The notes under the pieces are model-generated. The model searched no databases. It saw nothing but the letters and a program-made list of their open reading frames with translations, and was not told the DNA's origin. 45,720 bases of DNA, taken from assembly GCA_964247375.1 (NCBI GenBank), contig CAXTUG010000001.1:13077-58796 (forward strand), written 5' to 3'. Positions 1,290 through 22,900 of this stretch are shown here, one piece after another; within the stretch, counting starts at the first letter, position 1, and each line of letters opens with the position of its first letter. Position numbers and translations under genes: made by a program. The stretch comes from an uncultured Sphingomonadaceae bacterium (GTDB taxonomy: Bacteria; Pseudomonadota; Alphaproteobacteria; Sphingomonadales; Sphingomonadaceae).

Positions 1290-1466
1290 CTAGAAACGGC
1301 AGGTCGGTGAATGCAGCGTCATGTTCGCTGGAAGCAGTTTGGCCGCTGACCAGGGCGATATGCAGGTAAGGGAAAGGGGTGCAGCCTGATGCGACAGCGC
1401 CACGACAAGCGTAGCAATCGCCAATGCGAGGAAACTTCTCGCCAATGGTGCAATGGCAGAAGACAT
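1290..1466 (-). CDS. Small hypothetical protein (58 aa) with hydrophobic N-terminus
   Basis: AAGGAG ribosome-binding site 5 nt before ATG 1466. Translation MSSAIAPLARSFLALAIATLVVALSHQAA... has a signal/TM-like segment and two Cys. Co-oriented with the flanking genes. Confidence 0.5.
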   Translation of the reverse strand: MSSAIAPLARSFLALAIATLVVALSHQAAPLSLTCISPWSAAKLLPANMTLHSPTCRF

Positions 1467-1589
1467 GAAATCTCCTTGTCTCGCTCCGGCCGCCGCGGCC
1501 TGCGTCACCATCCGCCCGGAAGTGTAAATATCTAGTTACCGTCTTGTTCCGTTAGCCCGGTGCCCTGGAGCGCCGGGCCAACGCTGCCA

Positions 1590-2699: not shown

Positions 2700-2845
2700 T
2701 TTACCTTCTCCCTCGCGCGCGAGGTGGCATAGGCGGGAGAAGTTTCGGAAGTATTGATGAGCCGGGCCGACGGGAAAATCAGCCCAAAAGTGGTACAGCC
2801 ATCATCCGCACGGATAGTGTAGGCAGAGCTGCGGCATAGCGGAGT

Positions 2846-3235
2846 TCAGAACTGCAACAGCAGAAAGCGAGCGAGCTGCTCTTCCTCCAGCTGCTCGATC
2901 ATCTCGCAGCCCAGCGCGTCGCGCGTGACCCAGACCACGCGTGCCGCCCTGCTCGTCTCCTCGTCGAGCTTCACGCTGATCTCACAGTTCACGCCTAGCA
3001 GAGATGCGTGCCTGGCGCTGAAGCCATTGAGCGAGATGTTCGTCAGAACGACGGGTATGATAGCGCCATCGGCGGTGACAAGCTCTACCGTTGCGCTAGG
3101 TCTGAACCGCTCGTCACGGCGCTGATCAATGCTCATTCCGTTCGACGATGCGACAGGAGCTTCTGGCGCCCGCTCGCAATCCGCCAACGCGCTTGATCCG
3201 AAATCTTGAGGATTTTCCAGAACATATTTAGACAT
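2846..3235 (-). CDS. PilZ domain protein (putative c-di-GMP receptor)
   Basis: RxxxR motif (QRRDERF) and (D/N)xSxxG motif (NISLNG), followed by ARVVW...GCE. Confidence 0.8.
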   Translation of the reverse strand: MSKYVLENPQDFGSSALADCERAPEAPVASSNGMSIDQRRDERFRPSATVELVTADGAIIPVVLTNISLNGFSARHASLLGVNCEISVKLDEETSRAARVVWVTRDALGCEMIEQLEEEQLARFLLLQF

Positions 3236-3325: not shown

Positions 3326-5023
3326 TTAATTAGTTCGTAAGTAAAGAATTGCTTCGCGTTTTGCACGATCAGTTACTGGTTGCGGCATCTTTCTATAGTT
3401 TTGCATGGTTGCAAATGCGACGAGTGGAGCCTCCAGCTCGCCTTCCAGCCCTACTAGGACAGACGAGGGCGGTGTTCGGGCGAGAACCGCGCCCACGAGT
3501 GTGGGCGACGTTAGCCGACGATAGTGACTTGCATCTGTTCGGTGCAGGATATCACCCACCCGATACACGAAGGGGCCGCTCGCAAGCTCCGGATAGATCG
3601 GCAGCCCCGCTTCTAATGGATAGAGCGGCGCGAGCGTTGCGACAGGTCCGTGATCTCGTCCCGTCTCGCTCGCCAGCGCCTCGGCGTTGCGATGTACGGC
3701 AATACCGGTCCAGCTGCGCGGATGGACGAGGGCGCCGATACCGGAGCAGAGCTGCGGGCCGCCGGCAACTGCCGCGATCACCGTCAGCGTGAACACGAAC
3801 GGCGTTGCCTGGTCTCGTTCCGCACGGTCCAGCATGCCGTAGAGCAGAACTACCAGGACGATGCCGAAAACGATCGGCGGCGCGTAATATTGCGGGAAGG
3901 AGGGGGTCGGGATGAACGAGACCATGCAGCCGAGGACGACAAGGCCGGTCACGATCAGGACAGGCGCATTCGCCAGCGCGATCAGTGTGGCGCGCGGTCC
4001 TCTCCTGATGCCAATCAGGCAGAGCAGATAGCCGATGCCGAGCGGGATGCAGCCGCCGGCGCCCAGCAGCCATAATTGATGAGCCAACATGATTTTCTGG
4101 CCGGGGCCGACCGCAACCTCGTCGTTGCCGGCCCAGTATTCGACCTGCGCGACGCGATGGTAGCGGACGACGTGTGCCCAGAGATTAGCGGGATCTGACA
4201 GAAAGAAGATCAATGTCGGCAAACCGCCGAGCAGCGCGCCCGCCACGAACGGCAGGATCATCAGGCGGACGCGTTCGTGCACGGAGGCTGCGGTCGGTGC
4301 GAACAGCACGGCGCAGCCGAAGCAGGGCAGGAGAAAAACGTAGTTGATCTTGAAGCCGACCGCGGCCGCAACCGCGAAGCCGCTAGCCAGCAGGCAGCCT
4401 GCGCGCCGGCGATCCGCACCGGCGCGGGTGCCGAGCAGGAAGAAGTAGAGGCCGATCAGCGATCCCGCGACCGGCACGAAATTGTTCGTCACGGCCATGC
4501 CCGTGGGCCCGAGCAGTACTGGGTTGGTCACGTAAAGGGTCACCGCCAGGGCTGCGATCGGCATCGACGCCGTCATCAGCCGCGCGATGAGAATGATGGC
4601 CGCGCCACCCGCCAGCCAAACGGCAAAGAGCAGCAGCCTGCCCGCAAGCAGATAGTGATGCGTGCCGGTCAGGGAGAACAACGCGGACAGCAGTATCGGA
4701 AGGTTGGGAAGATGATTGTATCCGAAATCATAATATAGGCTCATCCGGCTGAACAGGATTCCCGCCGGGACGTAGAACTGCTCGTCATGGCGGAGCGGGA
4801 AGCTCATGATGCGGGTGAAGAGCCCGCAGGTCGCAAGCAGGCCAAGGACTGCAGCGAGGGAGATTGCGCGCGGTGTTGCCGTTTGGGCAGGCAGAGGGAA
4901 GGTCGGCAGGCGCTCCGACTGCGCCGTCATTGCGGCAACGGCGCCGACGAGATTCCCCTTAACGCCCGCTACCGGTCGCGAAGCCGTACCGCTATCGTCA
5001 CCGATCGAGAGCATGGATCGCAT
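3326..5023 (-). CDS. Polytopic membrane glycosyltransferase, GT-C fold (ArnT/GT39/DUF2029-like)
   Basis: Many TM segments; acidic motif RHDEQFY after the first TM, YNHLP loop, GFKINY and FPQYY motifs; soluble C-terminal tail. Start uncertain. Confidence 0.7.
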   Translation of the reverse strand: MRSMLSIGDDSGTASRPVAGVKGNLVGAVAAMTAQSERLPTFPLPAQTATPRAISLAAVLGLLATCGLFTRIMSFPLRHDEQFYVPAGILFSRMSLYYDFGYNHLPNLPILLSALFSLTGTHHYLLAGRLLLFAVWLAGGAAIILIARLMTASMPIAALAVTLYVTNPVLLGPTGMAVTNNFVPVAGSLIGLYFFLLGTRAGADRRRAGCLLASGFAVAAAVGFKINYVFLLPCFGCAVLFAPTAASVHERVRLMILPFVAGALLGGLPTLIFFLSDPANLWAHVVRYHRVAQVEYWAGNDEVAVGPGQKIMLAHQLWLLGAGGCIPLGIGYLLCLIGIRRGPRATLIALANAPVLIVTGLVVLGCMVSFIPTPSFPQYYAPPIVFGIVLVVLLYGMLDRAERDQATPFVFTLTVIAAVAGGPQLCSGIGALVHPRSWTGIAVHRNAEALASETGRDHGPVATLAPLYPLEAGLPIYPELASGPFVYRVGDILHRTDASHYRRLTSPTLVGAVLARTPPSSVLVGLEGELEAPLVAFATMQNYRKMPQPVTDRAKREAILYLRTN

Positions 5024-5452
5024 ACTGGAGCGTTTTGAAATCGGCGACTACTCGCAATGGTTGCCGTCGACAGGCTGCGAACGGCATTTGCCGGAGCTCG
5101 TCTCGAGTGATCTCCGACCGTGCCATCAACCTTCCTTCACGCAAAGCGGGCTGTGAATCTGCAGCCGATGGCGGCATCGTTCCGCCACCGGGCCGACCAT
5201 CCCGGAGAAGCATTCCGGAACGATGTATACGATCTCGCGATCTACCAAGCTCTCGTCACGGATATGCCGGACACAGCCGGATGAGACTGCAAGTTAGCAT
5301 GGGCAGGGCTGCGTAACGCGCGCTATTTTGAAGGGGGCCGCCTGGTCCAAATACCACGAATGATTGCCATGCGTTAACCACGGTGGAGTAGGGAGGACGC
5401 CAGATTCTGGCCTAGTCCCGGACGCGCTACTTGAACGTCCGGGGGTAGAATC

Positions 5453-6928
5453 ATGGCAACCGAATTCAAGATTGCAGAGGCGCCGCATCCGCGCGGCGAA
5501 GATCGTGAGATCCTCACGCTGGAGCAGAGCTTCGACCTGAGCAAGGCCGATGCCAACCGGCTCTATGCGCAGCATCTCAACCGCTACATGCTGCAGCTCT
5601 ACGACGTGCTCGGCCTCGCCGAGATGGACATACTCAGCGCTCAAGGCGCGGAGATTCAGCTCGGCGACGGGCGTCGTCTCCTGGACTTTCACACGGGGTT
5701 GGGGGTGGTCGGTCTGGGCCATAACCATCCGCGTATCATCGCCGCCGAACAGGCATGCCACGAGCGCCTCATACTGGATTGTATCAAGCTTGCGCCGCAC
5801 AAGCTGCAGGGCGCGCTCGCCTACAACCTGGCGCGCTTCCTGCCCGACCCGCTCGCCGTTTCCTTCTTCGCCGTTTCCGGCGCGGAAGCGAACGAGGCGG
5901 CGATGAAGCTCAGCGAGCGCGTCCAGACTCCCAAAGGCAAGCGCAAGTTCCTCTGCATGCGCGGCGCCTTCCACGGCAAGACGCACGGCGCATTGTCCCT
6001 CACCACCGCCACACCGGACGTCCAGGACGGCTTCCTGCTCGGCGTGCCGCGCGAGAACATCGTCTATGTCGAATATGGCAATATCGACGCGCTGCAGGAG
6101 GCGATTCGCAGCGAGAGCGACAGCCGGGGACGTAACCCGATCATCGCTGCGATCGTCGAGTCCATGCGCGGCACATCCTGCCAGGTGCTGCCGGACGGCT
6201 ACCTGCCGGCTTTTGCGCGTATCTGCCGCGAGAACGACATTCTCTCGATCTTCGATGAGGTGAAGGTCGGCATGGGGCGGACCGGCCGGTTCTGCGCGTT
6301 CCAGCACGAGGAAGTCGTTCCCGACATCGTGACGCTCGCCAAGACGCTTGGCGGCGGCAAGCGCGAAGTGGCGGCGATGGTCACGTCCCAGCGGCTGTTC
6401 GACAAGGCCTATGGCAACAAGCAGACCTGCAACCTGCACAGCTCCAGCTTCAGTGGTCTCGGTGAGAGCTGCGCGGTTGCGATCGAGACGCTGAACATCC
6501 TCAAGGACGAGAAGCTGATCGAGAACGCCGAGCGGATGGGAGGATATCTCTCCCGCCGCCTGCACGACCTCAAGGCCAAGCATCCCAAGCGGATCTTGGA
6601 CGTGCGCGGGCGCGGCCTGTTTCAGGCCATGCGGCTCAACTTCGGCCAGGAGCTTGCGACACGGCTCGTCGACATCTCGAAGAATCCGCTCTTCACGACT
6701 TACCAGACGGTGCTGATCGGCGCACTGGCCCGCGAGCTGTACGAGCGGCACGACATCTTGGTCCACTTCCAGCCGGGTGCGCGGGACATCATCCACTTCA
6801 TGCCGCCCTTCATCGTGCAGGAAGCGCAGATCGATCGCCTTATCGCTGCGCTCGACGAGACGCTGACCCGGGGCATCGCCGATGCTACCGTCAAGTTCGT
6901 CGCGAAGAATATCGCCCGTGTCTTCTAG
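5453..6928 (+). CDS. Class III PLP-dependent aminotransferase (ornithine/putrescine/HpnO-like family)
   Basis: Motifs LGHNHP, SGAEANEAAMK, AFHGKT, FDEVKVGMGRTG and PDIVTLAKTLGGG (PLP lysine). Confidence 0.92.
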   Translation: MATEFKIAEAPHPRGEDREILTLEQSFDLSKADANRLYAQHLNRYMLQLYDVLGLAEMDILSAQGAEIQLGDGRRLLDFHTGLGVVGLGHNHPRIIAAEQACHERLILDCIKLAPHKLQGALAYNLARFLPDPLAVSFFAVSGAEANEAAMKLSERVQTPKGKRKFLCMRGAFHGKTHGALSLTTATPDVQDGFLLGVPRENIVYVEYGNIDALQEAIRSESDSRGRNPIIAAIVESMRGTSCQVLPDGYLPAFARICRENDILSIFDEVKVGMGRTGRFCAFQHEEVVPDIVTLAKTLGGGKREVAAMVTSQRLFDKAYGNKQTCNLHSSSFSGLGESCAVAIETLNILKDEKLIENAERMGGYLSRRLHDLKAKHPKRILDVRGRGLFQAMRLNFGQELATRLVDISKNPLFTTYQTVLIGALARELYERHDILVHFQPGARDIIHFMPPFIVQEAQIDRLIAALDETLTRGIADATVKFVAKNIARVF

Positions 6929-8546
6929 CGCCTTCCCGGATGCCGCCGGCTTTAGGGCCGCCCGGAGTTGGGATACGACAACCCGGCCGAGTTCGACGCG
7001 TCCAGACGGCGCGCCAGCTCGTGGCGTGATGGCGGGCGCCGCCATCGCTGCGGCAATCGCCTTCGTGCTGGTGCTGGCCAGCACCCGCCACGGCATCGGC
7101 ATCCTGCCGGACAGCACGCGGTACATGGGGATGAACGACGTCCCCTATGACGCGCCGCTCTATGCTTGGCTGCTCATGCTGCTGAGCCACGCCGGCATCG
7201 GCATGGCCGCCGGCGCGAAGCTGCTCGGTCTCGTGCTCTCGGCGGCCAATGCCGCGCTGACCTGGTACCTGCTGGCGAGGACGACGGGCCGAACCTTTGC
7301 CGCTGCGATCGGTACCGGATTGATCGTGCTCTCACCCCAATTCGTCGATTTGCACTCGAGCGCACTCTCGGAGCCGCTGTTCCTGTTCTTCTTTCTCGCC
7401 ATCTACATTGCGTTCCTGAATTATCTCGAGAGCGAGCGGGTGGCGTGGCTGGTGATCGCCGCGCTCCTGACGGGACTCTGCTCGCTCGTCCGGTTTACGG
7501 CTCCGCCGATCGGGTTTGCACTGGCGGCGACGCTGCTTATCAGCCGTCGTCATCCCTGGCCGCGCCGTCTGCGGGACGCCGCAATACTCAGCCTGATTGC
7601 CGGTGGCCTGTTCGCCGGCTGGTGTGTTGCGAGCCAGTTGACCGCCGGCCAGTCGCTCGGCCGCGAGCTGAGCTTCCACGGCAACATGGGCGCGATGCAG
7701 TGGATGAAGAGTCTTGAGGCAATGGCCGCATGGCTGCTGCCGGATCAGGTGTCGCTGGCAGCCCGCGTCGGCATTCTGGCCACCGTCGCGATAGCAGGCG
7801 CCTACATTGTCGGGCGGACGTCGGGCATGGCCATCGCGCAGAGCCGATGGAGCAAGGTAGCCGAGCCGCTGCTGCCCATGGCGCTGGGTCTGTTCTTCCT
7901 CGCCTACGTGGCGTTCATGGTGCTCGCCACTTCGATCGAGGCCAATCTCTCGCTCACCGGCCGCTACGCCTTTCCGCTCTATGTCTCGGCGGTGCTGATG
8001 ATCTCGATCGCGGCGTCGATGCGCTTCGCGCCGGATGACCGGGTGCGACGCGTGATTACCGGGCTCGCCTGCCTCGCAATCATTGTTCTCTGCGGCCACC
8101 TGATCCGCACCGCCCTGCGGACGAAGCAGGACTTCCAGAACGGCAAGGGCTTCGCAGCGCCGAGCTGGACGGGATCGCCGACGCTCCGGCACGTGGCGGC
8201 GCTCCCGCCTCAAGCGACGATCTGGAGCAATGCACCCGACGCGGTCGCCTATGTCACCGGCCACAAGGCGCATTGGCTGCCCTGGCGTGTCATGCCCCGC
8301 ACCGGCCTTCCCGATCCCGCACATCCCTATGCGGCACAGGTGGAGCAGGTGCGGCAGAGCCTGCGAACGCACGAAGGGTATCTGGTATTCATGAGACATG
8401 TCGAGTGGCGGCCCTATCTCGCGACCGAAACGCGGCTCGTCAGCGACCTGAACCTGCAGCTGGTTGCGAACGAACCTGACGGACGGGTCTACGCCGCAGC
8501 TCTCCGGGATCGCACCAGTCGTCCGATCGGAAAGGAGAACCGGTGA
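6918..8546 (+). CDS. Polytopic membrane glycosyltransferase, GT-C fold (phospholipid-carrier-dependent)
   Basis: GILPDSTRY after TM1, APLY, LSEPLF, LVRF and GRY motifs; about 11-12 TMs plus a periplasmic tail. Start is GTG 6918 (overlapping the upstream stop) or ATG 7029. Confidence 0.75.
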   Translation: MSSSAFPDAAGFRAARSWDTTTRPSSTRPDGAPARGVMAGAAIAAAIAFVLVLASTRHGIGILPDSTRYMGMNDVPYDAPLYAWLLMLLSHAGIGMAAGAKLLGLVLSAANAALTWYLLARTTGRTFAAAIGTGLIVLSPQFVDLHSSALSEPLFLFFFLAIYIAFLNYLESERVAWLVIAALLTGLCSLVRFTAPPIGFALAATLLISRRHPWPRRLRDAAILSLIAGGLFAGWCVASQLTAGQSLGRELSFHGNMGAMQWMKSLEAMAAWLLPDQVSLAARVGILATVAIAGAYIVGRTSGMAIAQSRWSKVAEPLLPMALGLFFLAYVAFMVLATSIEANLSLTGRYAFPLYVSAVLMISIAASMRFAPDDRVRRVITGLACLAIIVLCGHLIRTALRTKQDFQNGKGFAAPSWTGSPTLRHVAALPPQATIWSNAPDAVAYVTGHKAHWLPWRVMPRTGLPDPAHPYAAQVEQVRQSLRTHEGYLVFMRHVEWRPYLATETRLVSDLNLQLVANEPDGRVYAAALRDRTSRPIGKENR

Positions 8547-9568
8547 TGGTAACCGACATCCTGGCTGGTCGCAGCGAGTCCGATGTCCGCACTGATCCGG
8601 ACGAGGGTCCGAAGCCCGCGGGCTTCCGGCAATATCTGGCGATCGCTCGCGTCGATCACATGACGAAGCACGTCTTCATCATTCCGGGGATCATTCTCGC
8701 CTATGTGCTGAGAGGGCCACCGAGCGGGTTCGTTCCGACGGAGCTGCTGTTCGGGCTGCTGAGCGCCGTCTGCATGGCCAGCGCGAACTACGTCATCAAC
8801 GAGTGGCTTGATCGCGAGTTCGACGCCTACCATCCCGAGAAATCGCGCCGGACGGCCTTACGCTGGCGATTGTCGCCGGCGATCATCTACCTGGAATATG
8901 CGTCGCTGATCGTCGCCGGGCTGCTGCTCGCCAGCCTGGTCAACGGATCGTTCCTCGTCGTAGCGGCGGTCTTCGCCTTGTCGGGCGTCCTCTACAATGT
9001 AGAGCCCGTCCGAACCAAGGACCGGGCCTATGTGGACGTCATCTCGGAGTCCGTGAACAATCCGATTCGGCTGACACTCGGCTGGACGATGATCGATGCC
9101 GCGACCCTTCCGCCGGCCAGTCTGCTGCTCGCCTATTGGGCTGCCGGCGCCTTTCTCATGGGCGCCAAGCGGCTTTCCGAATATCGCGACATCACCGCCC
9201 GTATCGGCATCGAGATGCTCGCGCGCTATCGACGGTCGTTCGCGCATTATTCGGCGGAGAACCTGATCGTCTCCTGCTTTCTCTATGCGATGATCTCGGC
9301 ATTCTTCCTCGCCGTGTTCCTGATCCGCTACCGGCTAGAATATCTCGTCGCGTTTCCGTTCATCGCCGGCTTGTTCGCGTCCTATCTGTGGCTCTCGCTG
9401 CTCTCCAACTCGATCGCCCAGCGTCCTGAGCGACTGTTTCGCTCGCGGCGTCTGATGCTGGCTTCGGGGCTTACGGTCGCCGTGCTGCTGGTGACGTCGT
9501 TCGTCGATCTGCCGGTGCTCAGCACGCTGTCTGCACCCAGCTTCGTACCGGTCGGCGCACACCGGTGA
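8543..9568 (+). CDS. UbiA-family prenyltransferase, decaprenyl-phosphate phosphoribosyltransferase-like
   Basis: ARVDHMTKHVF, YVINEWLDREFDAYHPEKSRR and AKRLSE motifs; multi-TM. GTGA overlap with the upstream gene and an AAGGAG RBS. Confidence 0.85.
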   Translation: MMVTDILAGRSESDVRTDPDEGPKPAGFRQYLAIARVDHMTKHVFIIPGIILAYVLRGPPSGFVPTELLFGLLSAVCMASANYVINEWLDREFDAYHPEKSRRTALRWRLSPAIIYLEYASLIVAGLLLASLVNGSFLVVAAVFALSGVLYNVEPVRTKDRAYVDVISESVNNPIRLTLGWTMIDAATLPPASLLLAYWAAGAFLMGAKRLSEYRDITARIGIEMLARYRRSFAHYSAENLIVSCFLYAMISAFFLAVFLIRYRLEYLVAFPFIAGLFASYLWLSLLSNSIAQRPERLFRSRRLMLASGLTVAVLLVTSFVDLPVLSTLSAPSFVPVGAHR

Positions 9569-10014
9569 TGGAACTGGCCTTGCAGCTTCCGGTTGAGCCG
9601 TCCGGCGTCGCACCGTCCCGTGCAAAGGAAGCGCATACGGCTGATCGGGGGAGGGGACGGACACCTGATTTCGAAGCTTGCGTCCACTCGCTGGCTGTCG
9701 CCCTGCTCGACGAGCTGGGAATGCCTTCTTCTCACGGCCATGAGCCCGACGCGGTTGCGGACTACTTGCTTGCCACCTGTCGCGAGATGCCGGATTACCT
9801 CCGAGTCGCGGTGCGGGCGGCCACGCTTGCCATCGACGCGCTGCCTTACGTGACGAGCGGTAAGCCATTTCATTCGCTAGATTTATCGCGACAGGTGCGG
9901 CTGCTGCGCCGCCTCGATCGCCTGCCGATCGGGCCGTTGCGGAGCGTGATCGCCTTCTACCGCGCATTGTCCGTCTATGCCCGGTTCGCCGCGGCCGACG
10001 CCCGGCGCATCTGA
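9565..10014 (+). CDS. Hypothetical protein, possible small partner subunit of the downstream GMC oxidoreductase
   Basis: GTGA-coupled to the UbiA gene and 8 nt before the GMC gene. The helical MPDYLR...FHSLDLSRQVRLL pattern resembles gluconate-2-dehydrogenase subunit-3-like proteins (weak). Confidence 0.6.
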   Translation: MMELALQLPVEPSGVAPSRAKEAHTADRGRGRTPDFEACVHSLAVALLDELGMPSSHGHEPDAVADYLLATCREMPDYLRVAVRAATLAIDALPYVTSGKPFHSLDLSRQVRLLRRLDRLPIGPLRSVIAFYRALSVYARFAAADARRI

Positions 10015-10022
10015 ACTCGGGA

Positions 10023-11510
10023 GTGCTGGCTTTGCGCAGCACGATGACCACAGAAATTCTCGTGATCGGATCCGGACCGGGCGGCGCCGTGACCGCTACC
10101 CTCTGCGCCGAAGCGGGACGCTCCGTGATGATGATCGAAGAGGGGCCAGACCTGCCCGTCTCGTCTGCAGCGCCTTTTTCGCGCGAAGAGCGATTGCAGA
10201 AATATCGCGGCGCCGGGATAGGCATCGCCATGGGGGCGGCCAAGATTGCCTATGTCGAGGGGCGGTGCGTCGGCGGCGGCAGCGAGGTCAATCGCGGTCT
10301 TTATCACCGAACTCCGGCGAGCGTGCTCGAACGATGGCGGGAAGACTACCGCGTTCAGGACAGGTCCGCTGCAGCGCTGGCGCCGCATTTCGAAGCATGT
10401 GAAGCGACGGCCCGCGTCGAGCACCTGCCGGGACCCGCTCCGGGCATCTCGACCCGCTTGGGCGCGGGCGCGGCGGCGCTCGGCTGGGCGGCGACGCCGA
10501 CGGCGCGACTGAACATTTATGACCACAGCGAGCCAAATTCGGGCAAGCAGTCCATGTCGCGCACCTTCGTTCCGCGGTTCCGCGCAGCGGGCGGCCGTCT
10601 GCTGGCCGACCTCCGCGCGTGGCGCATCGTCCGGTCGGGTTCGGGCTGGACGGTCGAGGCGGAACACACCCCCGCCGACGATCCGCCGCGCGCTGTGCTC
10701 ATCCGGGCGGAGCGGGTATACGTCGCGTGCGGGGCGGTGCAGACACCGGCGCTGCTCAGGCGATCGGGTATCCGCCACAATATCGGATCGTCGCTGCGCT
10801 TTCATACGATGCTGAAAGCGGTGGCGGAGTTCGACGATGAAGTGAACCTGCCCGGCGATCTCGATCCTGTCCATCAAATCCGCGAATTCGAGCCCGATAT
10901 CGGGATCGGCTGCTCGATCAGCAGCCCGTCGATGCTCGCGCTAGCGCTCAACGGCAATCCCGAGGGACTCGCTCGGGTGCCGGATCGGTGGCGCCGCATG
11001 GGTATCTACTATGTGCAATCGTCGGCTGGAAAGGCCAAGGTACGAAACCTGCCGTTCGTGCGTGATCCGCTGGTGACCGTCGACTATGCGAAGGACGATC
11101 TAGCCACGTTGACGGGCGGCTTCCACCGCATGGTCGAAGCGCTGTTCGCTGCCGGCGCGAGGCGGGTCTATCCGGCGGTCGCCCACGTCCCAGCGCTCGA
11201 GTCTCCGGCCGATCTGGCGCATTTGCCGGCGCTCGCCGCGCGCGACGGAAGCCTGAGCGCGGTCCATGTCTTCTCTTCCTGCCCGATGGGAGAGAACATG
11301 GCGCGGTGCGCCACCGACTCGTTCGGGCGCGTCCACGGCGTCGAAGGCCTCTATATTGCGGACGCATCCCTGCTGTGCGGGCCGACATCCGTAAATCCTC
11401 AAGGCACCGTAATGGCGATCGCCCACCGGAATGCCAGACACGCGCTGGAATCCGGATGGCAGTGCCGCCGGGCTGCCCACTCCGCAGCGCCGGCCGAAGC
11501 TGTCGTATGA
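10023..11510 (+). CDS. GMC-family FAD-dependent oxidoreductase
   Basis: VIGSGPGG FAD motif, GRCVGGGSEVN, ACGAVQTPALL, HVFSSCPMG, LYIADAS and VNPQGTVMA. Alternative start ATG 10044. Confidence 0.92.
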   Translation: MLALRSTMTTEILVIGSGPGGAVTATLCAEAGRSVMMIEEGPDLPVSSAAPFSREERLQKYRGAGIGIAMGAAKIAYVEGRCVGGGSEVNRGLYHRTPASVLERWREDYRVQDRSAAALAPHFEACEATARVEHLPGPAPGISTRLGAGAAALGWAATPTARLNIYDHSEPNSGKQSMSRTFVPRFRAAGGRLLADLRAWRIVRSGSGWTVEAEHTPADDPPRAVLIRAERVYVACGAVQTPALLRRSGIRHNIGSSLRFHTMLKAVAEFDDEVNLPGDLDPVHQIREFEPDIGIGCSISSPSMLALALNGNPEGLARVPDRWRRMGIYYVQSSAGKAKVRNLPFVRDPLVTVDYAKDDLATLTGGFHRMVEALFAAGARRVYPAVAHVPALESPADLAHLPALAARDGSLSAVHVFSSCPMGENMARCATDSFGRVHGVEGLYIADASLLCGPTSVNPQGTVMAIAHRNARHALESGWQCRRAAHSAAPAEAVV

Positions 11511-12523
11511 GGCATCTGATCACCGGCGGCTCGGGCCTTATCGGCAACCTCGTCGCTCGGCGCCTGCGCACGCGGGGCGATCAGGTACGCGTCCTCGATC
11601 TCTGGTCCGATCCGGAACGGCCGGCCGACATAGAATTCATCCAGGGCAGCATCCTTGATGCTGGTACCGTCGCGTCGGCTATGCGGGACGTTGACGTCGT
11701 GCATCACGGTGCGGCGCTGGTCGCGCAGACCGGGGCGGGCGATGCCTTCCGGGCCGTCAATGTTGAGGGTAGCAGGATTGTGGCGGACGCCGCCGTCGCC
11801 GCACAGGCGAGGGCCGTCGTCCATATCAGTTCGACGTCGGTCTACGGCCTGCCGCCGGATGGGCCGATCACGTCGGCCACGCCCGAGCAACCTTTCGAAT
11901 CCTACGGCCGTTCGAAGCTGGAAGGCGAGCGGATCATGCATGCGGTCTGCGCGCGCGCCGCAATTCCCCTGATCACGATTCGGCCCCGCGTTACGCTCTG
12001 CGCAGGACGGCTCGGCATCTTCGAGCTGCTATTCCAGTGGATCGCGCGAAACCGGCGGGTGTGGATGCTCGGCGACGGCAGCAATCGCATGCAGTTCATT
12101 CATGCTGATGATCTGATCGACTTCTACATGCTCGCGCTCGAGACGCGCCGCACCGGCATCTTCAATGTCGGTACCGATCGCTTCGGCACGTTGCGGTCCG
12201 ACCTGGAGGCGCTGATAGCCCACGCGCGGAGTCGCTCAAGGCTGAGTTCTGTGCCGTCCGCAGCCGCCGGAACCCTGCTGAGCGCGGCGTATCACCTCGG
12301 TCTCTCGCCGATCGTGCCCTGGCACTATCGCACCTATCATCGCCCTTGCCATTTCGACGTGGCGCCGCTGCTCGCGATGGGCTGGCAACCGGTCTACTCG
12401 AACGCGGAAATGCTGTGCGAGAGTTACGACTGGTTCTACCAACAGGCCGGACTTCCCGATCCCGCTCAACAATCCCCGCATCGCTCACGCCTGAAGCGGG
12501 GCCTGCTCCGGCTCACGGCCTGA
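11507..12523 (+). CDS. NAD-dependent epimerase/dehydratase (extended SDR)
   Basis: ATGA overlap with the GMC stop; TGGSGLIG, ISSTSVYG and YGRSK catalytic motif. Confidence 0.9.
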   Translation: MRHLITGGSGLIGNLVARRLRTRGDQVRVLDLWSDPERPADIEFIQGSILDAGTVASAMRDVDVVHHGAALVAQTGAGDAFRAVNVEGSRIVADAAVAAQARAVVHISSTSVYGLPPDGPITSATPEQPFESYGRSKLEGERIMHAVCARAAIPLITIRPRVTLCAGRLGIFELLFQWIARNRRVWMLGDGSNRMQFIHADDLIDFYMLALETRRTGIFNVGTDRFGTLRSDLEALIAHARSRSRLSSVPSAAAGTLLSAAYHLGLSPIVPWHYRTYHRPCHFDVAPLLAMGWQPVYSNAEMLCESYDWFYQQAGLPDPAQQSPHRSRLKRGLLRLTA

Positions 12524-13513
12524 TGCCAAAGGAGAAATGCCGCCTGTCAGCAGCCAAATGATGGTGAAAAGGGCGATCGGCGCCCAGAGAAGCAGGTGGG
12601 TCAGCAGCACTGCCGCAGCCCCGAGCGACCGGTCCACGCCAGCATGGGCGAATGCCTGAACGCCGGCGAATTCAAACGGTCCGAAATGGCCGGGAAGGCT
12701 AGGGACGAGCGTGCCGAGCATGGCGACCGCGTAGGCAAGCAGCGGCGGTGCCGGCGTCCCCGACGAGCCGCCAAGACTGATCCAGGCGCCGCGCGCCACG
12801 CCAGCCTCCAGCCCCCACACCACCAGTGACAGGCCGAACAGCGCAAACAGGCGATCCCATCGGCCGATACGCCCGATCGAGGCCGCTGTGACGACGATAA
12901 TGTCGGCGAGACTCCTTATCCACCGGTTGGAGAAGCGCCGCAGCAGCGTTCGTCCTGCGATGTCGAGCAGCTTGGGAGCGAGCAACAGCGCAACGACGAC
13001 GCCTACCCCCAGCAATGCGGAAACCCTGATGCCTGTCGCGAACTCGCCCATATGTTCTCCGCCCACAGCGAAGAGCGCCACGAGGGCGACGAGCAGCAAC
13101 GACGCCAGATCGAACACCCGCTCGACCACCATCGCGCCGACTACGGTGCCGGCAGGCAGGCCGAAGCGGCGGCCCAACCAGAGGATCCGCAGACCATCGC
13201 CAACCCGTAGCGGCAGGAGATCGCTCATGCCGAAACTCGCCACAAACGGCGCGATCATGCCGCTGAACGGAACCCGTTGTGGTGCGGCGATGCGAAGCAT
13301 AATCCAGAAGCGTGCGCTCCGTAGCACGAAATCCGCCAGTAGCGCGAGCAGTGCGGCGAGCAACGGCAAGGGAGCTGCCCGCGACAGCGATCGTGCGATA
13401 GCCTCGAGATCCAGGCCGCGCGCGACTACGAAGAGCAGCAGGATGCCGGCGGCCGCGCTCAGGCCGACGCGCAGCGCTGGACGGCCATGCCGCGAAACCA
13501 TTCGGTTAATCAT
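12485..13513 (-). CDS. Lysylphosphatidylglycerol-synthase-TM (UPF0104) family membrane protein, putative flippase
   Basis: LRSARF, LLPLRVGDGLR, VVERVFD and PSLPGHFGPFE motifs; multi-TM. Confidence 0.85.
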   Translation of the reverse strand: MINRMVSRHGRPALRVGLSAAAGILLLFVVARGLDLEAIARSLSRAAPLPLLAALLALLADFVLRSARFWIMLRIAAPQRVPFSGMIAPFVASFGMSDLLPLRVGDGLRILWLGRRFGLPAGTVVGAMVVERVFDLASLLLVALVALFAVGGEHMGEFATGIRVSALLGVGVVVALLLAPKLLDIAGRTLLRRFSNRWIRSLADIIVVTAASIGRIGRWDRLFALFGLSLVVWGLEAGVARGAWISLGGSSGTPAPPLLAYAVAMLGTLVPSLPGHFGPFEFAGVQAFAHAGVDRSLGAAAVLLTHLLLWAPIALFTIIWLLTGGISPLASGREPEQAPLQA

Positions 13514-14141
13514 CGTTGGTAAGCTCGTGGCGAAGCTGGAGGGCGGCCAGCATCGTGCGGTTGCTAACGCCGAGCTTCAGATAGATATTCTGCAGATGCA
13601 TTCCTGCCGTGCCCTCTGCGATGCGCAGACGCACCGCGATGGCGCGGTTCGACAGGCCCTCGCAGACGAGGGCGGCCACTTCATGTTCCCTCTGGGTCAG
13701 CGCCGCAATGCTCCTCGTCCGCGGCGACGCCGCCGGTCCCGACAGGCGCGCCATCAAGTCCGGCGGCAGCCAGCGGCCTCCGGCAGCGACGTGTCTCATG
13801 CATTCCAGCAACGTGTCCGCCGCATAGTCTTTGAGCACCAGCCCGCATACGCCGAGCTGGAGCGCTTCCTCGATCTGCGCTCGTGTCAGCGTTGCGGTCA
13901 GAATGACGACCTTGACCGGCAAAGCGCGCTCCGAGACCGATCGCTGAACAGCTAGGCCGCCGAAGTCCGGCATCGAAAGGTCCAGCACCGCGAGATCGGG
14001 AGCCAGCGTCTTGATCAGCGCCAGTGCCCGGCGACCAGACCCGGTCGTGCCGACGATTTCGAACTCGCGTGCCGCCGACATGAGGTCCTGCAATCCCCGC
14101 ATCAGGAGCGGGTGATCGTCGGCGAGAACGACGCGCGGCAT
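13506..14141 (-). CDS. NarL/LuxR-family response regulator
   Basis: REC domain (LADDHPL, VLDLSMPD, VLK) plus HTH (LTQREHEVAALVCEGLSNRAIA...IYLKLGV). Confidence 0.95.
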   Translation of the reverse strand: MPRVVLADDHPLLMRGLQDLMSAAREFEIVGTTGSGRRALALIKTLAPDLAVLDLSMPDFGGLAVQRSVSERALPVKVVILTATLTRAQIEEALQLGVCGLVLKDYAADTLLECMRHVAAGGRWLPPDLMARLSGPAASPRTRSIAALTQREHEVAALVCEGLSNRAIAVRLRIAEGTAGMHLQNIYLKLGVSNRTMLAALQLRHELTNDD

Positions 14142-15808
14142 CAGCCGCCGACCGCGCAGGGCAGGGTGATCTCGAGCCCAAGGCCGGGAGCAGCCCGACT
14201 GATCGTAAACAGGCCGCCGAGATCGGCGACCCGGCGCGACAGGGATTGCGGCAGCGTCCGATCCTGCGGATCGAGTCCCCGGCCGTTGTCGATGATCTTC
14301 ATGGTTAGGGTCGAAGGATCACGGAGAAGAAGAACGCGTAGAATCGTGGCGCTGCCATGCCGCACGGCATTTGCAGTGGCTTCCGAGACGATCTGGAACA
14401 CTTCGTGGCCCAGCCAGCTGGGCACCTCCGCCTCCGACGGATGAAGCTCGATGTCGATTCGGCAGTTCCATTGCCGCTGAAGCGTCTCGGCTTGTTCCAG
14501 CAAGCCGTAGAGGGCGACCTTCGCGGTTTCGCCGGTATTCTCGCTTTCCTCGACGAACTGTCGAAGCCGGCGTTGCTGGGCGCTGACGATCGCGGCGATG
14601 TTGCGGAGCGGCTCCTGCGCGCCGTTCTCGGCCGCGTCGGTTAGCGCCTTCAGCTTCAGGTTGGCCGCCGTCAGCCCCTGGAGCACGCTGTCGTGAAGGT
14701 CGCGGGCCAGCCGCAGCCGCTCCTGAGCACGGATCGAATCCGCCGCCTCTTCGAGCAGCCCGGCCTTCTCCAGCTCGGCGCCGATCCGCCCGGCAATGAT
14801 GTCGATCAGCACCTGCGCCTCGTCACGCCGACAGTCCGGATCGACAACCAGCAACCGCCCGCGATAGTTGAGACCGGAGAAGCCGGCCCCGCAGAAGACC
14901 TGCCGCGACGGCCCGCCTGCGGCGTCGGCGGACTGCCGCTGCTTGAACAGGTCGAGCAGCGCGGCGTCCCGCCCCGCACCGGCCGGTGATCCAAGCTGAT
15001 CGGCTGTTTCGGGATCGTGACTATGCCATATTGTTGGATCGGAGATTTGACGAACCTGGATGCGGTGCTCGGCCCATAGTACCGCGCTGCCGCCCTCTGC
15101 GTCCTGGTTCCACCAGATGACCAGCAGCTTCGCCCCGCCGAGAACCGTTGCGGCGTGCTGCAGCGCATCGCCGAGCCACGCATGCTTGGCAAACGACGGC
15201 GCAGTTGAGGGCCATATGGCGAGCGTCGCGAGCTGTCGGCGGCTTCGCTCCCGATAGGCGCCAAGATAGCCGAGCATAACTGCTGCGATCAGAAAATAGA
15301 CCGACCGCATGATCATCAGGTTCAGCTCGGGATTGCCGTCCCGCAGATCCGGCAGGCCGATTACCAGCAGCTCGAGCTGAAGGACGACGGCGGCCATGGC
15401 GGCACCGGCCAAGCCCCACCGCAACGTCATGGCCAGCAGCAGGAACGGCAGGAAGGCAAAGAAAGGACTGGTCAGCTCGTCCGTCAGTGCCGCGAGCCAA
15501 CCGAGCACGCCCGCGTCGATCAGGTGGATGAAGATGTGCGCGCGGGCGTTCAGCGGCCAGTGCGGCGGATACATGACGAGCAGCATCGAGAAGGAGAGAT
15601 ATATGCCGAGCACGACCTGTGCTTCGCGCGCGAACATCGCCGGCTGGGTTGGATCCAGGAAGATCGCAACGACCGCCATGAACGCGGTTAGCAAGCGCGC
15701 AACACCGATAAGCCATTCGGGATCGGTGGCCAGCAGCGCATCCTGCGCCGATCGGCCCAACGAGGACGACCGACGCCTCCTCGGCCCGCTGACTTCGCGT
15801 GACATCAT
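14141..15808 (-). CDS. Membrane sensor histidine kinase (HisKA_3 type)
   Basis: N-terminal TM bundle; ERLRLARDLHDSVLQ H-box, EATANAVRHG N-box and DNGRG G-box. The ORF is open up to 15862, so the start is uncertain. Confidence 0.92.
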   Translation of the reverse strand: MMSREVSGPRRRRSSSLGRSAQDALLATDPEWLIGVARLLTAFMAVVAIFLDPTQPAMFAREAQVVLGIYLSFSMLLVMYPPHWPLNARAHIFIHLIDAGVLGWLAALTDELTSPFFAFLPFLLLAMTLRWGLAGAAMAAVVLQLELLVIGLPDLRDGNPELNLMIMRSVYFLIAAVMLGYLGAYRERSRRQLATLAIWPSTAPSFAKHAWLGDALQHAATVLGGAKLLVIWWNQDAEGGSAVLWAEHRIQVRQISDPTIWHSHDPETADQLGSPAGAGRDAALLDLFKQRQSADAAGGPSRQVFCGAGFSGLNYRGRLLVVDPDCRRDEAQVLIDIIAGRIGAELEKAGLLEEAADSIRAQERLRLARDLHDSVLQGLTAANLKLKALTDAAENGAQEPLRNIAAIVSAQQRRLRQFVEESENTGETAKVALYGLLEQAETLQRQWNCRIDIELHPSEAEVPSWLGHEVFQIVSEATANAVRHGSATILRVLLLRDPSTLTMKIIDNGRGLDPQDRTLPQSLSRRVADLGGLFTISRAAPGLGLEITLPCAVGG

Positions 15809-16016
15809 CGTTGCGCCCCACGCTTTACCGCACGATTGCGGTATATCCTCCCCGCGAGGCATCGAACATAGACCATCTGGATAGGTCAGTGGAGGATGAT
15901 GGGAGCGAAATCGGGCGCTCTGGCGCTTGCGCGAATTTCACGGCCGCGAACGGCGTTCCCATGTAGAGGTGACCTGCGCCGGATCACGCCGCGGCGATGA
16001 TCATGTGCCGACGATC

Positions 16017-16055
16017 GCATACCGCGCGCGCTTCGGCGAAGCGCGCGCGGTATGC
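16017..16055. repeat. Perfect 18-bp inverted repeat with 3-nt spacer
   Basis: GCATACCGCGCGCGCTTC-GGC-GAAGCGCGCGCGGTATGC in the divergent intergenic region. Confidence 0.9.
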
Positions 16056-16173
16056 CGCAATACGGCCCCGCGTCCGGAAGGCTTAGAGGAATGATCCGCC
16101 ACCCTAAAGGGGTAACGCTGCTACCCTTCTTAGCAGTGGGCGGACACGGCGGGAACGTTCATCAATTTGGGCC

Positions 16174-17676
16174 GTGGACGGGGCGACGGGCAATCTCGAA
16201 ATGCTCTCGCGGAGCGAGGCGGACGGGCGTGCCGAGCACGTGCCGCGTGTCAATCCGCGCCCGCTTGTCGTCGATCTCGATGGCACGCTGCTACGCACGG
16301 ACTCGCTCCACGAGACGTTCGTTGCCGCGGCCTTCTCGCAGCCTGGCGGCGTCGTGAAACTCCTGCTGGCGCTGCGGCACGGACGGGCCGGTTTCAAGAG
16401 CGCGGTTGCGCGTGCCGCAGCATTGGACTGTACGACCTTGCCCTATGACGATGCGATCGTTCAGATGATCGTTGCGCGTCGTGCGGCCGGCGGCGAGGTC
16501 CATTTGGTCACCGCAGCGGACCAGAGCATAGCCGACGGCGTCGCCGCCTATCTCGACTGCTTCACCACGGCGACGGGTAGCGACGGCTGCCTGAACCTGA
16601 AGGGTGAAGCCAAGCGGGCGCATCTCGCGGCGCGCTTTCCGGCTGGCTTCGACTATGTCGGTGACAGCGCCGCAGATCTTGCGGTCTGGCGGCAGAGCGG
16701 TGCTGCGATCATGGTCGGGAAATCGCGCAGGCTTACCGGCGAGATCGCCCGGGCGGGGCTTCCGTGCGAGAACATTCCCCGTCGGAAGGCCAGCCTCAAG
16801 GGTTGGATCAAGCAGCTCCGCATTCATCAGTGGAGCAAGAATAGCCTCATTTTCGTGCCGGCTCTGCTGAACCACGATCTCGTTCAGCCCGAAAAGGCAG
16901 GGCTCGCCGTGTTGGCGTTTCTGCTGTTCGGGCTCGTCGCGTCGGCAACCTACCTTATTAATGATCTGAGCGATCTGCGCGTCGACCGGTTGCATCCTAC
17001 CAAATGTCGTCGTGCCCTGGCTTCCGGGCTAGTCTCGATCCGGCTGGCGGCGACGCTCTCGATCGCGATGCTCGGAGTCGGACTGCTCGGCGCGGCCCTG
17101 ATCAGCCCGGCGCTCTGCGCCGCGCTCGGAAGCTACCTCGTGCTGACGCTCGCTTACTCGTTCCGGTTCAAGCGCGAACCGCTGATTGACACCGTTACGA
17201 TTGCCGGACTGTTCACATTGCGAATTCTCGCCGGCATGGCGCTGGTCGACCGGCCGATCTCGCTCTGGCTGGCCACTTTCACGATGGTTCTCTTCCTCTC
17301 GCTCGCGCTCGCGAAGCGAACGGCGGAGCTCGTCAAGGCTGCAGGTGTCGGGCGGGCCGTGCACGGCCGCGGCTACCAGCCCAACGATCAGGCGCTCACG
17401 CAGAGCTTCGGCGTCGCCGCAGGCCTGCTCTCGGCCATCGTGATGGTGATGTATTTCTCCGTGGATGCCGTGCCGGCCGGCCTTTACGCCCGCGAGGCAC
17501 CGCTCTTTCTGATCCCGCTCGTCCTGTCGCTCTGGATCATGCGGGTCTGGATCCGCGCAAGCCGGGGCGTGCTCAACGACGATCCGGTATTGTTCGCGAT
17601 ACGCGATCGCGTGAGCTGGCTTCACGCACTCGCGATCGCAGGCTGCTGGCTGGCAGCGGTGGTGCCCGGCCGGTGA
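16174..17676 (+). CDS. HAD phosphatase-UbiA prenyltransferase fusion (polyprenyl-phosphate phosphoribosyltransferase-like)
   Basis: N-terminal HAD motifs VVDLDGTL and YVGDSAADL; C-terminal LRIHQWSKN, YLINDLSDLRVDRLHPTKCRR, LAKRTAEL and DDPVLFA. Start may be 16201. Confidence 0.92.
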   Translation: MDGATGNLEMLSRSEADGRAEHVPRVNPRPLVVDLDGTLLRTDSLHETFVAAAFSQPGGVVKLLLALRHGRAGFKSAVARAAALDCTTLPYDDAIVQMIVARRAAGGEVHLVTAADQSIADGVAAYLDCFTTATGSDGCLNLKGEAKRAHLAARFPAGFDYVGDSAADLAVWRQSGAAIMVGKSRRLTGEIARAGLPCENIPRRKASLKGWIKQLRIHQWSKNSLIFVPALLNHDLVQPEKAGLAVLAFLLFGLVASATYLINDLSDLRVDRLHPTKCRRALASGLVSIRLAATLSIAMLGVGLLGAALISPALCAALGSYLVLTLAYSFRFKREPLIDTVTIAGLFTLRILAGMALVDRPISLWLATFTMVLFLSLALAKRTAELVKAAGVGRAVHGRGYQPNDQALTQSFGVAAGLLSAIVMVMYFSVDAVPAGLYAREAPLFLIPLVLSLWIMRVWIRASRGVLNDDPVLFAIRDRVSWLHALAIAGCWLAAVVPGR

Positions 17677-18041
17677 ACGCGCTCTTCCTTGCGCTGATCC
17701 TGTTCAGCGTCTCGCTCAATGCATCGGCCCAGATCCTGTTGCGCAAGGCGATGACTGCGGGGCCGCTGCCGCCGGTCAGCCAGGTGGTGCCGCTGGCCGT
17801 ATCGCTTGGCACCAATCCCTGGCTGATCGCAGGGATGCTCGCTTACGCGGTCAGCATCGGTTCGTGGATGATGGTGCTGAGCCGGGTTCAGGTCAGCGCT
17901 GCATACCCGATGTTGTCGATCGGCTACGTGATCGCAGCGTTAATCGGCATGTTCTTCCTGGGAGAGGCGGTAGGACCGATCCGCTGGGCCGGCATCGCGC
18001 TGATCTGTTGCGGCGTGTTCGTGATTGCGAGGACCGCGTGA
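17673..18041 (+). CDS. SMR/EamA small membrane protein, ArnE/ArnF-like putative flippase
   Basis: 122 aa, 4 TMs; AQILLRK, LSRVQVSAAYPMLSIGYV and LGEAVGPIRWAG. GTGA coupling on both sides. Confidence 0.85.
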   Translation: MNALFLALILFSVSLNASAQILLRKAMTAGPLPPVSQVVPLAVSLGTNPWLIAGMLAYAVSIGSWMMVLSRVQVSAAYPMLSIGYVIAALIGMFFLGEAVGPIRWAGIALICCGVFVIARTA

Positions 18042-19061
18042 CGCGCCGCCACGTCGTAACGGGTGGCGCCGGCTTCGTCGGCTGCGAACTCGTGGCCGCG
18101 CTGCTGGCGGGCGGCGAGAAGGTCGTGGTGTTCGATACCGCTTGCGGAGCGTTGCCGGGAGTCGAGCATATCCAGGGCGATGTGCGCCGTGCCGAAGATC
18201 TCGCGCGCATCCAATTGACGGCGGACGACATCGTGCATCATCTCGCCGCGCGTCAATTTCACGGGCCGGTTCCGCATCGGGGGCGCGACGCTTGGTTCGC
18301 CTCTGTCAACGAGGGCGGCACAATCCGCCTGCTTGAGGCGATGGAGCGGGGTGGCGCCCGGCGCCTCGTCTTCGACCGACATGACCTACGGAGTGCCGCA
18401 GCAATCACCGCTGCCGCCGACCCACCCGCAACGCCCGATCGGTGCATATGGCCGGAGCAAGCGTTCCGCGGAGCAGGCGATCGCGCGTGCGACCGCGGCG
18501 TTCGGATTACAGGCGACGATATTCCGCCCGCGATTGATCGCCGGAGCCGGGCGGCTCGGGATCCTGGCCAAGCTCTTCCGCCTGATCGAGCGCGGCCTGC
18601 CCGTGCCGATGATCGGTTCCGGCGCCAACCGCTATCAGATGGTCGCGGTATCCGACTGCGTTGCCGCGGCGTTGCAGGCCGTGGCGCTGGATTGTCCTGC
18701 AGGCCCCTTCAACCTCGGTTCGGATGCTCCGCCGCCCGTTCGCGATCTGCTCCGAAAACTGATTGAGCGCGCCGGCTCCAGCTCGCGGCTGCTGCCGACC
18801 CATGCTGCGGCCGTCAAGACTACCCTGGCTATGCTGGATACGCTCGGCCTGACGCTGCTCCATCCCGAGCAGTACCGGATCGCGGATATTGACTACGTTC
18901 TCGATACTGCGTCGACGCAAGCCGCGCTGGGATGGAAGCCGAGCCGCAGCGACGCCGATATCATTTTCGAGGCATACGATTATTTTGCTCAGGCGTCGTC
19001 GGGCGGAAGCGTGGCGGCCGTTCCATCCGGCACGGTTGCGACCTCTTCCTCCTCAAGCTGA
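18038..19061 (+). pseudogene. NAD-dependent epimerase/dehydratase (extended SDR) split by a frameshift near 18374
   Basis: The frame from GTG 18038 gives VVTGGAGFVG...RRLVF. The expected continuation TDMTYG...YGRSK...RPRLIAGAGRLG lies in another frame ending at 19061. Could be a real lesion or a sequencing error. Confidence 0.85.
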
Positions 19062-22859: not shown

Positions 22860-22900
22860 CGCATCGAGCCTGAAATCTGGACCAAACCTCCTGCGTTCGT
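22821..22900. repeat. Imperfect tandem direct repeat, 2 x 40 bp
   Basis: GCATCGGGCCTGAAATCCGAACCAAATTTC... at 22821 and GCATCGAGCCTGAAATCTGGACCAAACCTC... at 22861. Confidence 0.75.

Follow-up and report, generated by a model that had tools for sequence, protein, structure and literature searches.

A candidate pathway for a lipid-linked amino-pentofuranose derived from phosphoribosyl pyrophosphate in an uncultured Sphingomonadaceae bacterium

The stretch analysed here (the window; 45,720 nt, positions 13077-58796 of contig C1, CAXTUG010000001.1) belongs to the genome of an uncultured Sphingomonadaceae bacterium, and its interval 3326-19061 encodes, as judged from sequence, what is probably a branch of a known pathway, the three-component pentofuranose system, extended by an amination step. 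We propose that a polyprenyl-phospho-ribose would be oxidised and then transaminated to an amino-deoxy-pentofuranose, which would be flipped and transferred to a surface acceptor; the probability of this reading is estimated at about 0.65. The genes concerned lie mainly in a module (module 1, Table 1) that includes a class III aminotransferase (AT3), a divergent UbiA protein (UbiA1) and a GMC flavoprotein. In the first step, UbiA would join phosphoribosyl pyrophosphate (PRPP) to polyprenyl phosphate, as has been shown for homologues, and a HAD phosphatase, here probably the HAD domain of the fusion gene at 16174, would remove the 5-phosphate. The GMC enzyme and its small partner would then oxidise one carbon, and AT3 would convert the carbonyl to an amine. 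SDR1, where present, may epimerise C3 (ribo to xylo). Finally, the UPF0104 protein would flip the donor and the transferase GT-C2 would transfer it, probably under the control of the kinase and regulator of the module.

The oxidation and transamination of a lipid-linked ribose had been suggested in a preliminary description of this DNA, and the suggestion passed a co-occurrence test. Using an aminotransferase profile, 80 genome loci were collected, of which 48 (L003-L050, at least 54% identical) form the AT3 clade; L051 (40% identical) and the fragment L052 were excluded from the counts. Among the 48 AT3 loci, 38 have a UbiA protein of the polyprenyl-phosphate phosphoribosyltransferase (PPPRS) type, 42 an oxidase, 43 a GT-C-like transferase, 40 a flippase, 38 a HAD protein and 19 an SDR; these loci are kin, picked by aminotransferase similarity, and the counts show linkage and involve no statistical test, which has to be held against the proposal. 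Some part of the pathway is present in all 48 loci, and in none of 30 distant class III loci used as the outgroup (21 of them at least 10 kb long; highly divergent genes could escape the markers used). The full module consists of AT3, GT-C2, UbiA1, a stand-alone HAD phosphatase, the small protein, GMC, optional SDR1, UPF0104 and the kinase/regulator pair. It is conserved in many bacteria of soil and water, with occurrences in Rhizobium, Mesorhizobium, Ensifer, Aureimonas, Sphingobium and Novosphingobium, among others; its cultured carriers include Sphingobium chungbukense, Novosphingobium lindaniclasticum, Sphingomonas aerophila and M. loti. When no UbiA gene lies nearby, UbiA1 is found elsewhere in the genome in four of five cases tested; the fifth genome carries elsewhere an operon of HAD-UbiA, DprE1 and a short SDR. 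In three Novosphingobium genomes (L028/L046, L035/L047 and L037/L194), the module is split over two loci and the aminotransferase is duplicated, with HAD, flippase and regulators in one locus and GT-C, UbiA, GMC and SDR in the other.

The oxidase beside AT3 varies: 36 loci have a GMC, five have a divergent GMC-like protein and carry HAD-UbiA, SMR and other GT-C genes, and two have DprE1. In one of the latter (L048) an AT3-clade enzyme adjoins DprE1, and no GMC was found in that genome. The other composition of note is L019:2297-10925, with one HAD-UbiA, SMR, DprE1, aminotransferases of both clades described here, a GMC-like gene and no SDR; it could make a diamino-pentose or two amino-pentoses.

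The second of these clades (AT3b) is sister to AT3, 35% identical to it, and comprises at least 2501 proteins. Its highly conserved five-gene operon (HAD-UbiA, DprE1, SMR, an extended SDR of the SDR2 type and AT3b; L100:7677-13374, L198, L199 and most of L102-L181) is more common than the version in the window. The AT3b survey covered 80 metagenome loci, and in the 44 with at least 5 kb upstream we counted DprE1 in 37, UbiA in 37, SMR in 43, SDR2 in 43 and GMC in none; DprE1 is thus absent nearby in seven. The DprE1 of the sister operon keeps the motifs around H132/K134, Q336, K367 and K418. On the gene maps no short SDR lies within the AT3b operon, DprE2 having not been searched genome-wide. 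In L157-L159, DprE1 abuts AT3b with no SDR between them. Three unrelated oxidases thus pair with such an aminotransferase beside a lipid-ribose synthase, and because DprE1 itself pairs with a related aminotransferase in the sister operon, the core proposal is strengthened. The AT3b operon is a candidate pathway for a 2-amino-2-deoxy-pentose: DprE1 oxidises C2, according to the available text of PMC11127046, so AT3b would give a 2-amino sugar. Two Mesorhizobium genomes contain both module 1 and the AT3b operon, which, together with the presence of both aminotransferases in L019, argues for different products of the two systems; Mesorhizobium loti DSM 2626 is a strain with both. HpnO, the hopanoid aminotransferase, was considered as the identity of AT3b and set apart without use of an HpnO sequence: at E 1e-80 a match was obtained in only one genome out of 300 others from the class, and the neighbours are PPPRS genes. 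Downstream of AT3b, 18 of the 56 long loci encode one unnamed family of 7-10-helix membrane proteins and 11 encode another, neither with a Pfam match.

AT3 itself falls under every NCBIfam cut-off listed, among them those for putrescine aminotransferase (231 bits against 612), acetylornithine aminotransferase (227 against 410) and PigE (253 against 850). In a FastTree phylogeny of 68 of 167 sequences, which gave long-branch warnings, it forms a separate clade with support 100, apart from the housekeeping class III enzymes of the genome. Both K297 and D268-x-x-K271 of the pyridoxal phosphate site occur in 48/48 AT3-clade sequences; the position equivalent in the D-x-x-K motif is Q in all 83 AT3b sequences. 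In GenB2, D199/K202 have the same spacing, and Lys202 is placed on the sugar in the available text of PMC11420954. NeoB and GenB are not among the 60 best PDB matches of the AT3 profile, nor did a search of the PDB with the DxxK motif give any aminoglycoside enzyme among the 60 matches listed.

The preliminary description had taken both UbiA proteins to be like decaprenylphosphoryl-5-phosphoribose synthase. This holds for the HAD-UbiA fusion, which scores above the PRK08238 cut-off, matches the Rv3806c structure 8J8J at E 1.5e-26 and keeps 10 of the 12 PRPP and lipid-phosphate ligands of Rv3806c (ligand residues as given in the available text of PMC10994848); its HAD domain, which carries DLDGT, corresponds to the 5'-phosphatase of PRPP three-component systems. 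For UbiA1, which is only 26% identical to the fusion, it holds in part. Ligand residues, transferred onto UbiA1 by eye via alignments, show that R22, K28, Y70, N73, D77, K87, R90, Y138, K143 and K191 are kept and are invariant in 22 sequences, so that the pyrophosphate, Mg and lipid-phosphate lysine/arginine ligands are all retained. The group has an invariant E-x-x-N-N-P-x-R motif of its own. Ten distant loci of the UbiA1 type (4 of 21 plasmid matches and 6 of 6 genome matches) were inspected; a HAD gene adjoins UbiA in eight of them, often accompanied by genes for GtrA and a membrane protein; neither AT3 nor GMC is found in any. Because the ligands are kept and HAD genes neighbour even distant relatives, UbiA1 is best read as a PPPRS subfamily, a predicted assignment. 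Both UbiA proteins therefore keep the PRPP ligands, and the aminotransferase co-occurs with them, as the preliminary description had anticipated. In Rhodobacter, L091:9290-11947 encodes an 885-aa protein in which HAD, part of a UbiA and a membrane domain are fused; a UbiA1-type gene follows it immediately. In L097, L098 and L099, the UbiA1-type and HAD genes adjoin B12-radical-SAM genes and a PMT_2 GT-C; these loci are possibly a variant for a methylated pentose.

A rival explanation starts from UbiA1: it would take a donor other than PRPP, and the pathway would not begin from ribose-5-phosphate. UbiA1 scores 61 bits against the PRK12324 cut-off of 234, has no PDB match and deviates from the Rv3806c ligands at Q135 (G) and Y157 (N), all of which, like its private motif, counts against the proposed first step. 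We regard this explanation as very improbable, since the ligands named above are all kept, HAD adjoins in 8/10 distant loci and the canonical HAD-UbiA replaces UbiA1 in other AT3 loci. The phosphatase is a further difficulty: a stand-alone HAD gene, present in 30/33 relatives with GMC and UbiA1, is absent from the window and has no match in the source genome, which is 77% complete. The Sphingomonas aerophila locus likewise has no stand-alone HAD gene, and just ahead of AT3 it retains a HAD-UbiA that is truncated but keeps its HAD part whole (L034:8783-9901). This suggests that the phosphatase missing from module 1 in the window is probably provided by the fusion at 16174, through its HAD domain.

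The GMC protein has an invariant His/Asn pair within VHVFSSCPMG and NPQ, and its predicted structure (pLDDT 81) shows the GMC fold. The small protein occurs fused to a GMC in locus L189 (E 8e-27), a natural fusion which supports the view that the two are partners. SDR1 shows the TGxxGxxG and YxxxK motifs of extended SDRs and is present in 19 of 33 loci with GMC and UbiA. Thirteen GMC loci of the module-1 type, read for at least 4.7 kb downstream, lack SDR1; in all five genomes of such loci that were searched no close SDR1 was found (no match in three and only a 30% identical sister-operon SDR in two). Because these 13 loci keep oxidase and aminotransferase, the two enzymes are the stable core and the SDR is dispensable.

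The strongest of the rival explanations is that GMC and an SDR epimerise the lipid-linked ribose to a neutral pentose, substituting for DprE1/DprE2, while AT3 acts on the acceptor or on a small metabolite. Several findings favour this explanation or weigh against ours. GMC relatives 36-46% identical to that of the window stand with SDRs and without an aminotransferase in all eight stretches inspected (3 of 9 plasmid matches and 5 of 5 genome matches; only the stretch was read). Thus pNGR234a, Rhizobium CCGE531 and genomes G074 and G296 have GMC with two SDRs, the small protein, PPPRS and a GT-C-like protein; such two-SDR sets fit an epimerase role in which AT3 would take the place of the reductase, so GMC and SDR may be an epimerase pair. 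L189, with one SDR only and no aminotransferase, matches this pattern less well. SDR2 is present in 43/44 sister operons. A fold search with GMC gave matches only 14-19% identical, and the oxidised carbon is not indicated by them; the closest solved structures to AT3 are putrescine aminotransferase, the nearest, and PigE. In the literature searched, which included few subscription papers, no report of a PRPP-derived lipid-linked amino-pentose or amino-pentofuranose was found. On the other side, 13 loci keep GMC and AT3 without any SDR1, AT3 stays beside three different oxidases, DprE1 directly adjoins the sister aminotransferase in L157-L159, without an intervening SDR, and L019 lacks an SDR altogether. 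The neutral-pentose explanation is therefore considered unlikely. As to the plasmid relatives, the rhizobial symbiotic plasmids L186:7037-15102 (pNGR234a), L187 and L188 carry SDR-SMR-small protein-GMC and membrane protein-SDR-HAD-UbiA, without an aminotransferase, and the set of pNGR234a lies a few kb from nodS.

Returning to the amino-pentofuranose, we can only guess at the carbon that is aminated. Given amination, C5 is favoured with slightly less than even chances, C2 follows with somewhat under one chance in three, and C3 is left with about one in seven. C5 is favoured, on indirect grounds, because module 1 coexists with a C2 (DprE1) system; because the N-terminus of SDR1 resembles that of the C3 epimerase ORF13 (a comparison of eight residues read off a primer), and such an activity would be pointless if C3 were aminated; because D268-x-x-K271 of AT3 shares the spacing of D199/K202 in GenB2; and because α-riburonic acid, a terminal residue in the exopolysaccharide (EPS) of S. 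meliloti IFO13336 in the available text of PMC8227245, shows that C5-oxidised α-ribofuranose exists in rhizobial EPS. C2 is supported by the adjacency of an AT3-clade enzyme and DprE1 in L048, where no GMC was found in the genome, and by the consideration that GMC sets without an aminotransferase would gain little from oxidising C5 and reducing it again. A wider view, which we hold as tentative and somewhat less probable than its contrary, is that of a whole, hitherto unrecognised family of PRPP-derived amino-pentofuranose pathways with amination on the lipid carrier and interchangeable oxidases (GMC, the second GMC-like type and DprE1), in which the position would depend on which of the two aminotransferase clades is present (C5 or C2, or both in L019); rhizobia and sphingomonads would then have a cationic surface sugar that is regulated, independent of Arn and unseen in solved glycans. 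If the amino-pentofuranose reading is right, amination of a lipid-linked sugar would be new chemistry, with new sugars for bacterial surface glycobiology; DprE1-type enzymes would serve a purpose other than epimerisation; and an Arn-independent positive charge would be predicted on the envelope of rhizobia and sphingomonads.

The amine could also be made and subsequently acylated, or the sugar could be modified beyond amination, leaving a neutral product and no charge-masking modification. In the window and in S. aerophila the locus is followed by an acyltransferase-3 gene, and genes for a formyltransferase and a deacetylase are among those of the neighbouring EPS cluster of the window; this acyltransferase is near only 1/48 AT3 loci, and the core module contains none, which makes this outcome improbable. 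Some GMC enzymes oxidise alcohols twice, so that GMC might fully oxidise C5 to a uronic acid, with the aminotransferase as a side branch; such a product would match the terminal riburonic acid mentioned above, and would leave the constant linkage to AT3 unexplained, for which reason we consider it highly improbable.

Table 1. Features of the window discussed in the text.
Feature	Position	Strand	Match or remark
Module 1	5453-15862		class III aminotransferase, GT-C, divergent UbiA, small protein and GMC, SDR, UPF0104, sensor kinase/regulator
Module 2	16174-19061	+	HAD-UbiA, SMR, SDR
GT-C1, 565 aa, accessory	3326-5023	-	HDE motif after first of ~10 hydrophobic segments
AT3, class III PLP aminotransferase, predicted keto/aldehydo-pentose transaminase	5453-6928	+	PF00202
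GT-C2, module 1 core	~7029-8546 (start approximate)	+	PMT_2 above cut-off
UbiA1, divergent, predicted PPPRS	8543-9568	+	ligand residues of Rv3806c
Small soluble partner of GMC	9565-10014	+	no family match (Pfam, NCBIfam)
GMC flavoprotein oxidase/dehydrogenase, predicted to oxidise one carbon of lipid-linked ribose	10023-11510	+	PF00732/PF05199
SDR1, extended, optional, candidate C3 epimerase	11507-12523	+	PF01370
UPF0104/LPG_synthase_TM flippase-like protein	12485-13513	-	PF03706, TIGR00374 above cut-off; conserved with module 1
NarL/LuxR-type response regulator	13506-14141	-	conserved with module 1
Membrane sensor kinase (HisKA_3)	14141-15862	-	in 34/48 related loci
HAD-UbiA fusion (PRP-PPPRS, ORF15 type)	16174-17676	+	PRK08238, 546 bits (cut-off 351); DLDGT motif
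SMR/EamA flippase, ArnE/F-like (ORF14 type)	17673-18041	+	under ArnE/F cut-offs
SDR2, extended, frameshifted	18038-19061	+	two frames match one intact homologue
EPS cluster	19202-37837		acyltransferase, Wzy-type, GT4s, pectate-lyase-like, Wza-type, sulfotransferase, DegT, dehydratase, formyltransferase, PIG-L deacetylase, ATP-grasp, HAD

The source genome (3.2 Mb, 387 contigs) has its nearest relatives for the pathway genes in S. aerophila, whose aminotransferase is 82% identical. Pfam and NCBIfam scans, on which the inventory of the interval rests, together with comparisons confirmed the class III aminotransferase, the two UbiA proteins (one of them a HAD fusion), GMC with its small partner, SMR and UPF0104, all named in the preliminary description; a sensor kinase and a NarL-type regulator (13506-15862, - strand) have to be added to its list. 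Its view of a single tightly coupled gene set serving one pathway is not supported: the interval holds two modules plus extra genes, not a single operon, and the genes form three units on the + or - strand plus one lone gene; across the 48 aminotransferase loci, module 2 and GT-C1 are not co-conserved with module 1, and SDR1 is optional. Of the two extended SDRs, SDR1 is confirmed, and SDR2 is not one open reading frame, its frame changing near 18372-18388, which again counts against the proposal. SDR2 shares 48% identity with the sister-operon SDR, and no close homologue was found at E 1e-45 in 400 other genomes of the order. Module 2 is therefore either an AT3b operon minus DprE1 and AT3b or a unit of the Citrobacter type; with GT-C1 it is probably a separate system that supplies a plain pentofuranose to the adjacent EPS, which with the SDR broken would be ribofuranose. 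G+C content is uniform over blocks of the interval (63-65%).

The closest published counterpart, which the preliminary description did not cite, is the PRPP three-component system, whose components, namely PPPRS-HAD, flippase, GT-C and SDR epimerase, are established (Kelly et al. 2024, PMC11127046, here from its available text), and by sequence the window has PPPRS, a 5'-phosphatase, flippases (SMR/EamA and UPF0104) and GT-C. In that text, ORF12-15 of Citrobacter youngae O1/O2 comprise HAD-UbiA, an SMR/EamA-like flippase, an extended SDR and a GT-C, a layout that module 2 shares, and the loss of orf13 in Citrobacter O1 parallels the broken SDR2. Compared with the Citrobacter system, the window adds the class III aminotransferase, a second, divergent UbiA, UPF0104 and a two-component system. 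Fig. S12 of the same paper lists Rhizobium CCGE531, whose GMC is 36% identical to that of the window, with the labels 'Choline dehydrogenase' and 'Hypothetical'. A relative with GMC and no aminotransferase is therefore already depicted in the supplement, where the word 'aminotransferase' does not occur.

With the mycobacterial decaprenyl-phospho-arabinose route (Rv3806c, Rv3807c, DprE1/DprE2) the window shares the joining of PRPP to polyprenyl phosphate, a flavoenzyme oxidising lipid-linked ribose and a GT-C. In contrast to that route, it has GMC in place of DprE1/DprE2, and the carbonyl would be aminated, not reduced. The reported absence of DprE1-like, DprE2-like and ArnC-like genes from the window was borne out by the scans, for ArnC within 3326-19061. 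DprE1 has no match in the source genome at its 77% completeness or in 5/5 module-1 genomes, while the same query matched 2/5 other genomes; no DprE2-type short SDR was found in the window, to which that search was limited and where both SDRs are of the extended type. The Arn pathway likewise has a lipid-linked aminopentose, an SMR flippase and a GT-C that bears an acidic motif following its first helix. There, a UDP-sugar is aminated by a DegT-type enzyme and loaded by a GT2, neither of which is in the module; Pfam and NCBIfam gave no ArnA, DegT-type ArnB, GT2 ArnC or ArnD in 3326-19061. The idea of a hybrid with the Arn route is therefore not sustained, as no Arn enzyme is involved and an SMR flippase is normal in PRPP three-component systems (PMC11127046, available text). 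The more cationic envelope suggested in the preliminary description is conjectural. GenQ/GenB1 and NeoQ/NeoB aminate C-6' of aminoglycosides with a dehydrogenase and an ornithine-aminotransferase-like PLP enzyme bearing D-x-x-K; GenQ/GenB1, which convert a sugar alcohol to an amine (PMC11420954, available text), are a precedent for such a pair of enzymes. These enzymes act on soluble antibiotic intermediates and are a functional analogy, not kin.

Of the two GT-C transferases reported earlier, GT-C2 is supported by PMT_2; it has an invariant D28 after the first helix and is conserved beside AT3, and its profile gave no real PDB match. GT-C1 has no Pfam or NCBIfam match of its own, and 7 of 9 homologues scanned match PMT, PMT_2 or GT87. 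A profile comparison of the two gave no match, and a single-sequence structure model of GT-C1 was uninformative (pLDDT 41). GT-C1 is found in 1/48 aminotransferase loci. Its three closest homologues (L215, L216 and L217) lie in EPS clusters like that of the window, with a nucleotidyltransferase, a DegT-type enzyme and a GT2; these clusters have nucleotide-sugar genes instead of PPPRS genes (GtrA confirmed in L217), and this transferase family appears, by gene content, to be used also with a different lipid-donor route. Because of these EPS surroundings beside nucleotide-sugar genes and GT2, GT-C1 is likely to decorate EPS. As for the acceptor of module 1, rhizobia make lipopolysaccharide (LPS) and sphingomonads generally do not; since the module occurs in both, lipid A as sole acceptor is unlikely. 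No LpxC match was found in the source genome, which is incomplete.

An EPS cluster adjoins module 1 in the window and in S. aerophila; in most other loci it has no such neighbour. The cluster of the window is large and mostly syntenic with S. aerophila, and its DegT gene (27172-28440) falls under the ArnB cut-off. Farther downstream, 38055-44814 (- strand) holds a row of TonB-dependent receptor, SapC, cupin and tryptophan-halogenase-family genes. At the other end, 2-3235 (- strand) encodes a PilZ protein, an RTX-repeat calcium-binding protein and one unannotated open reading frame, of which S. aerophila has two copies.

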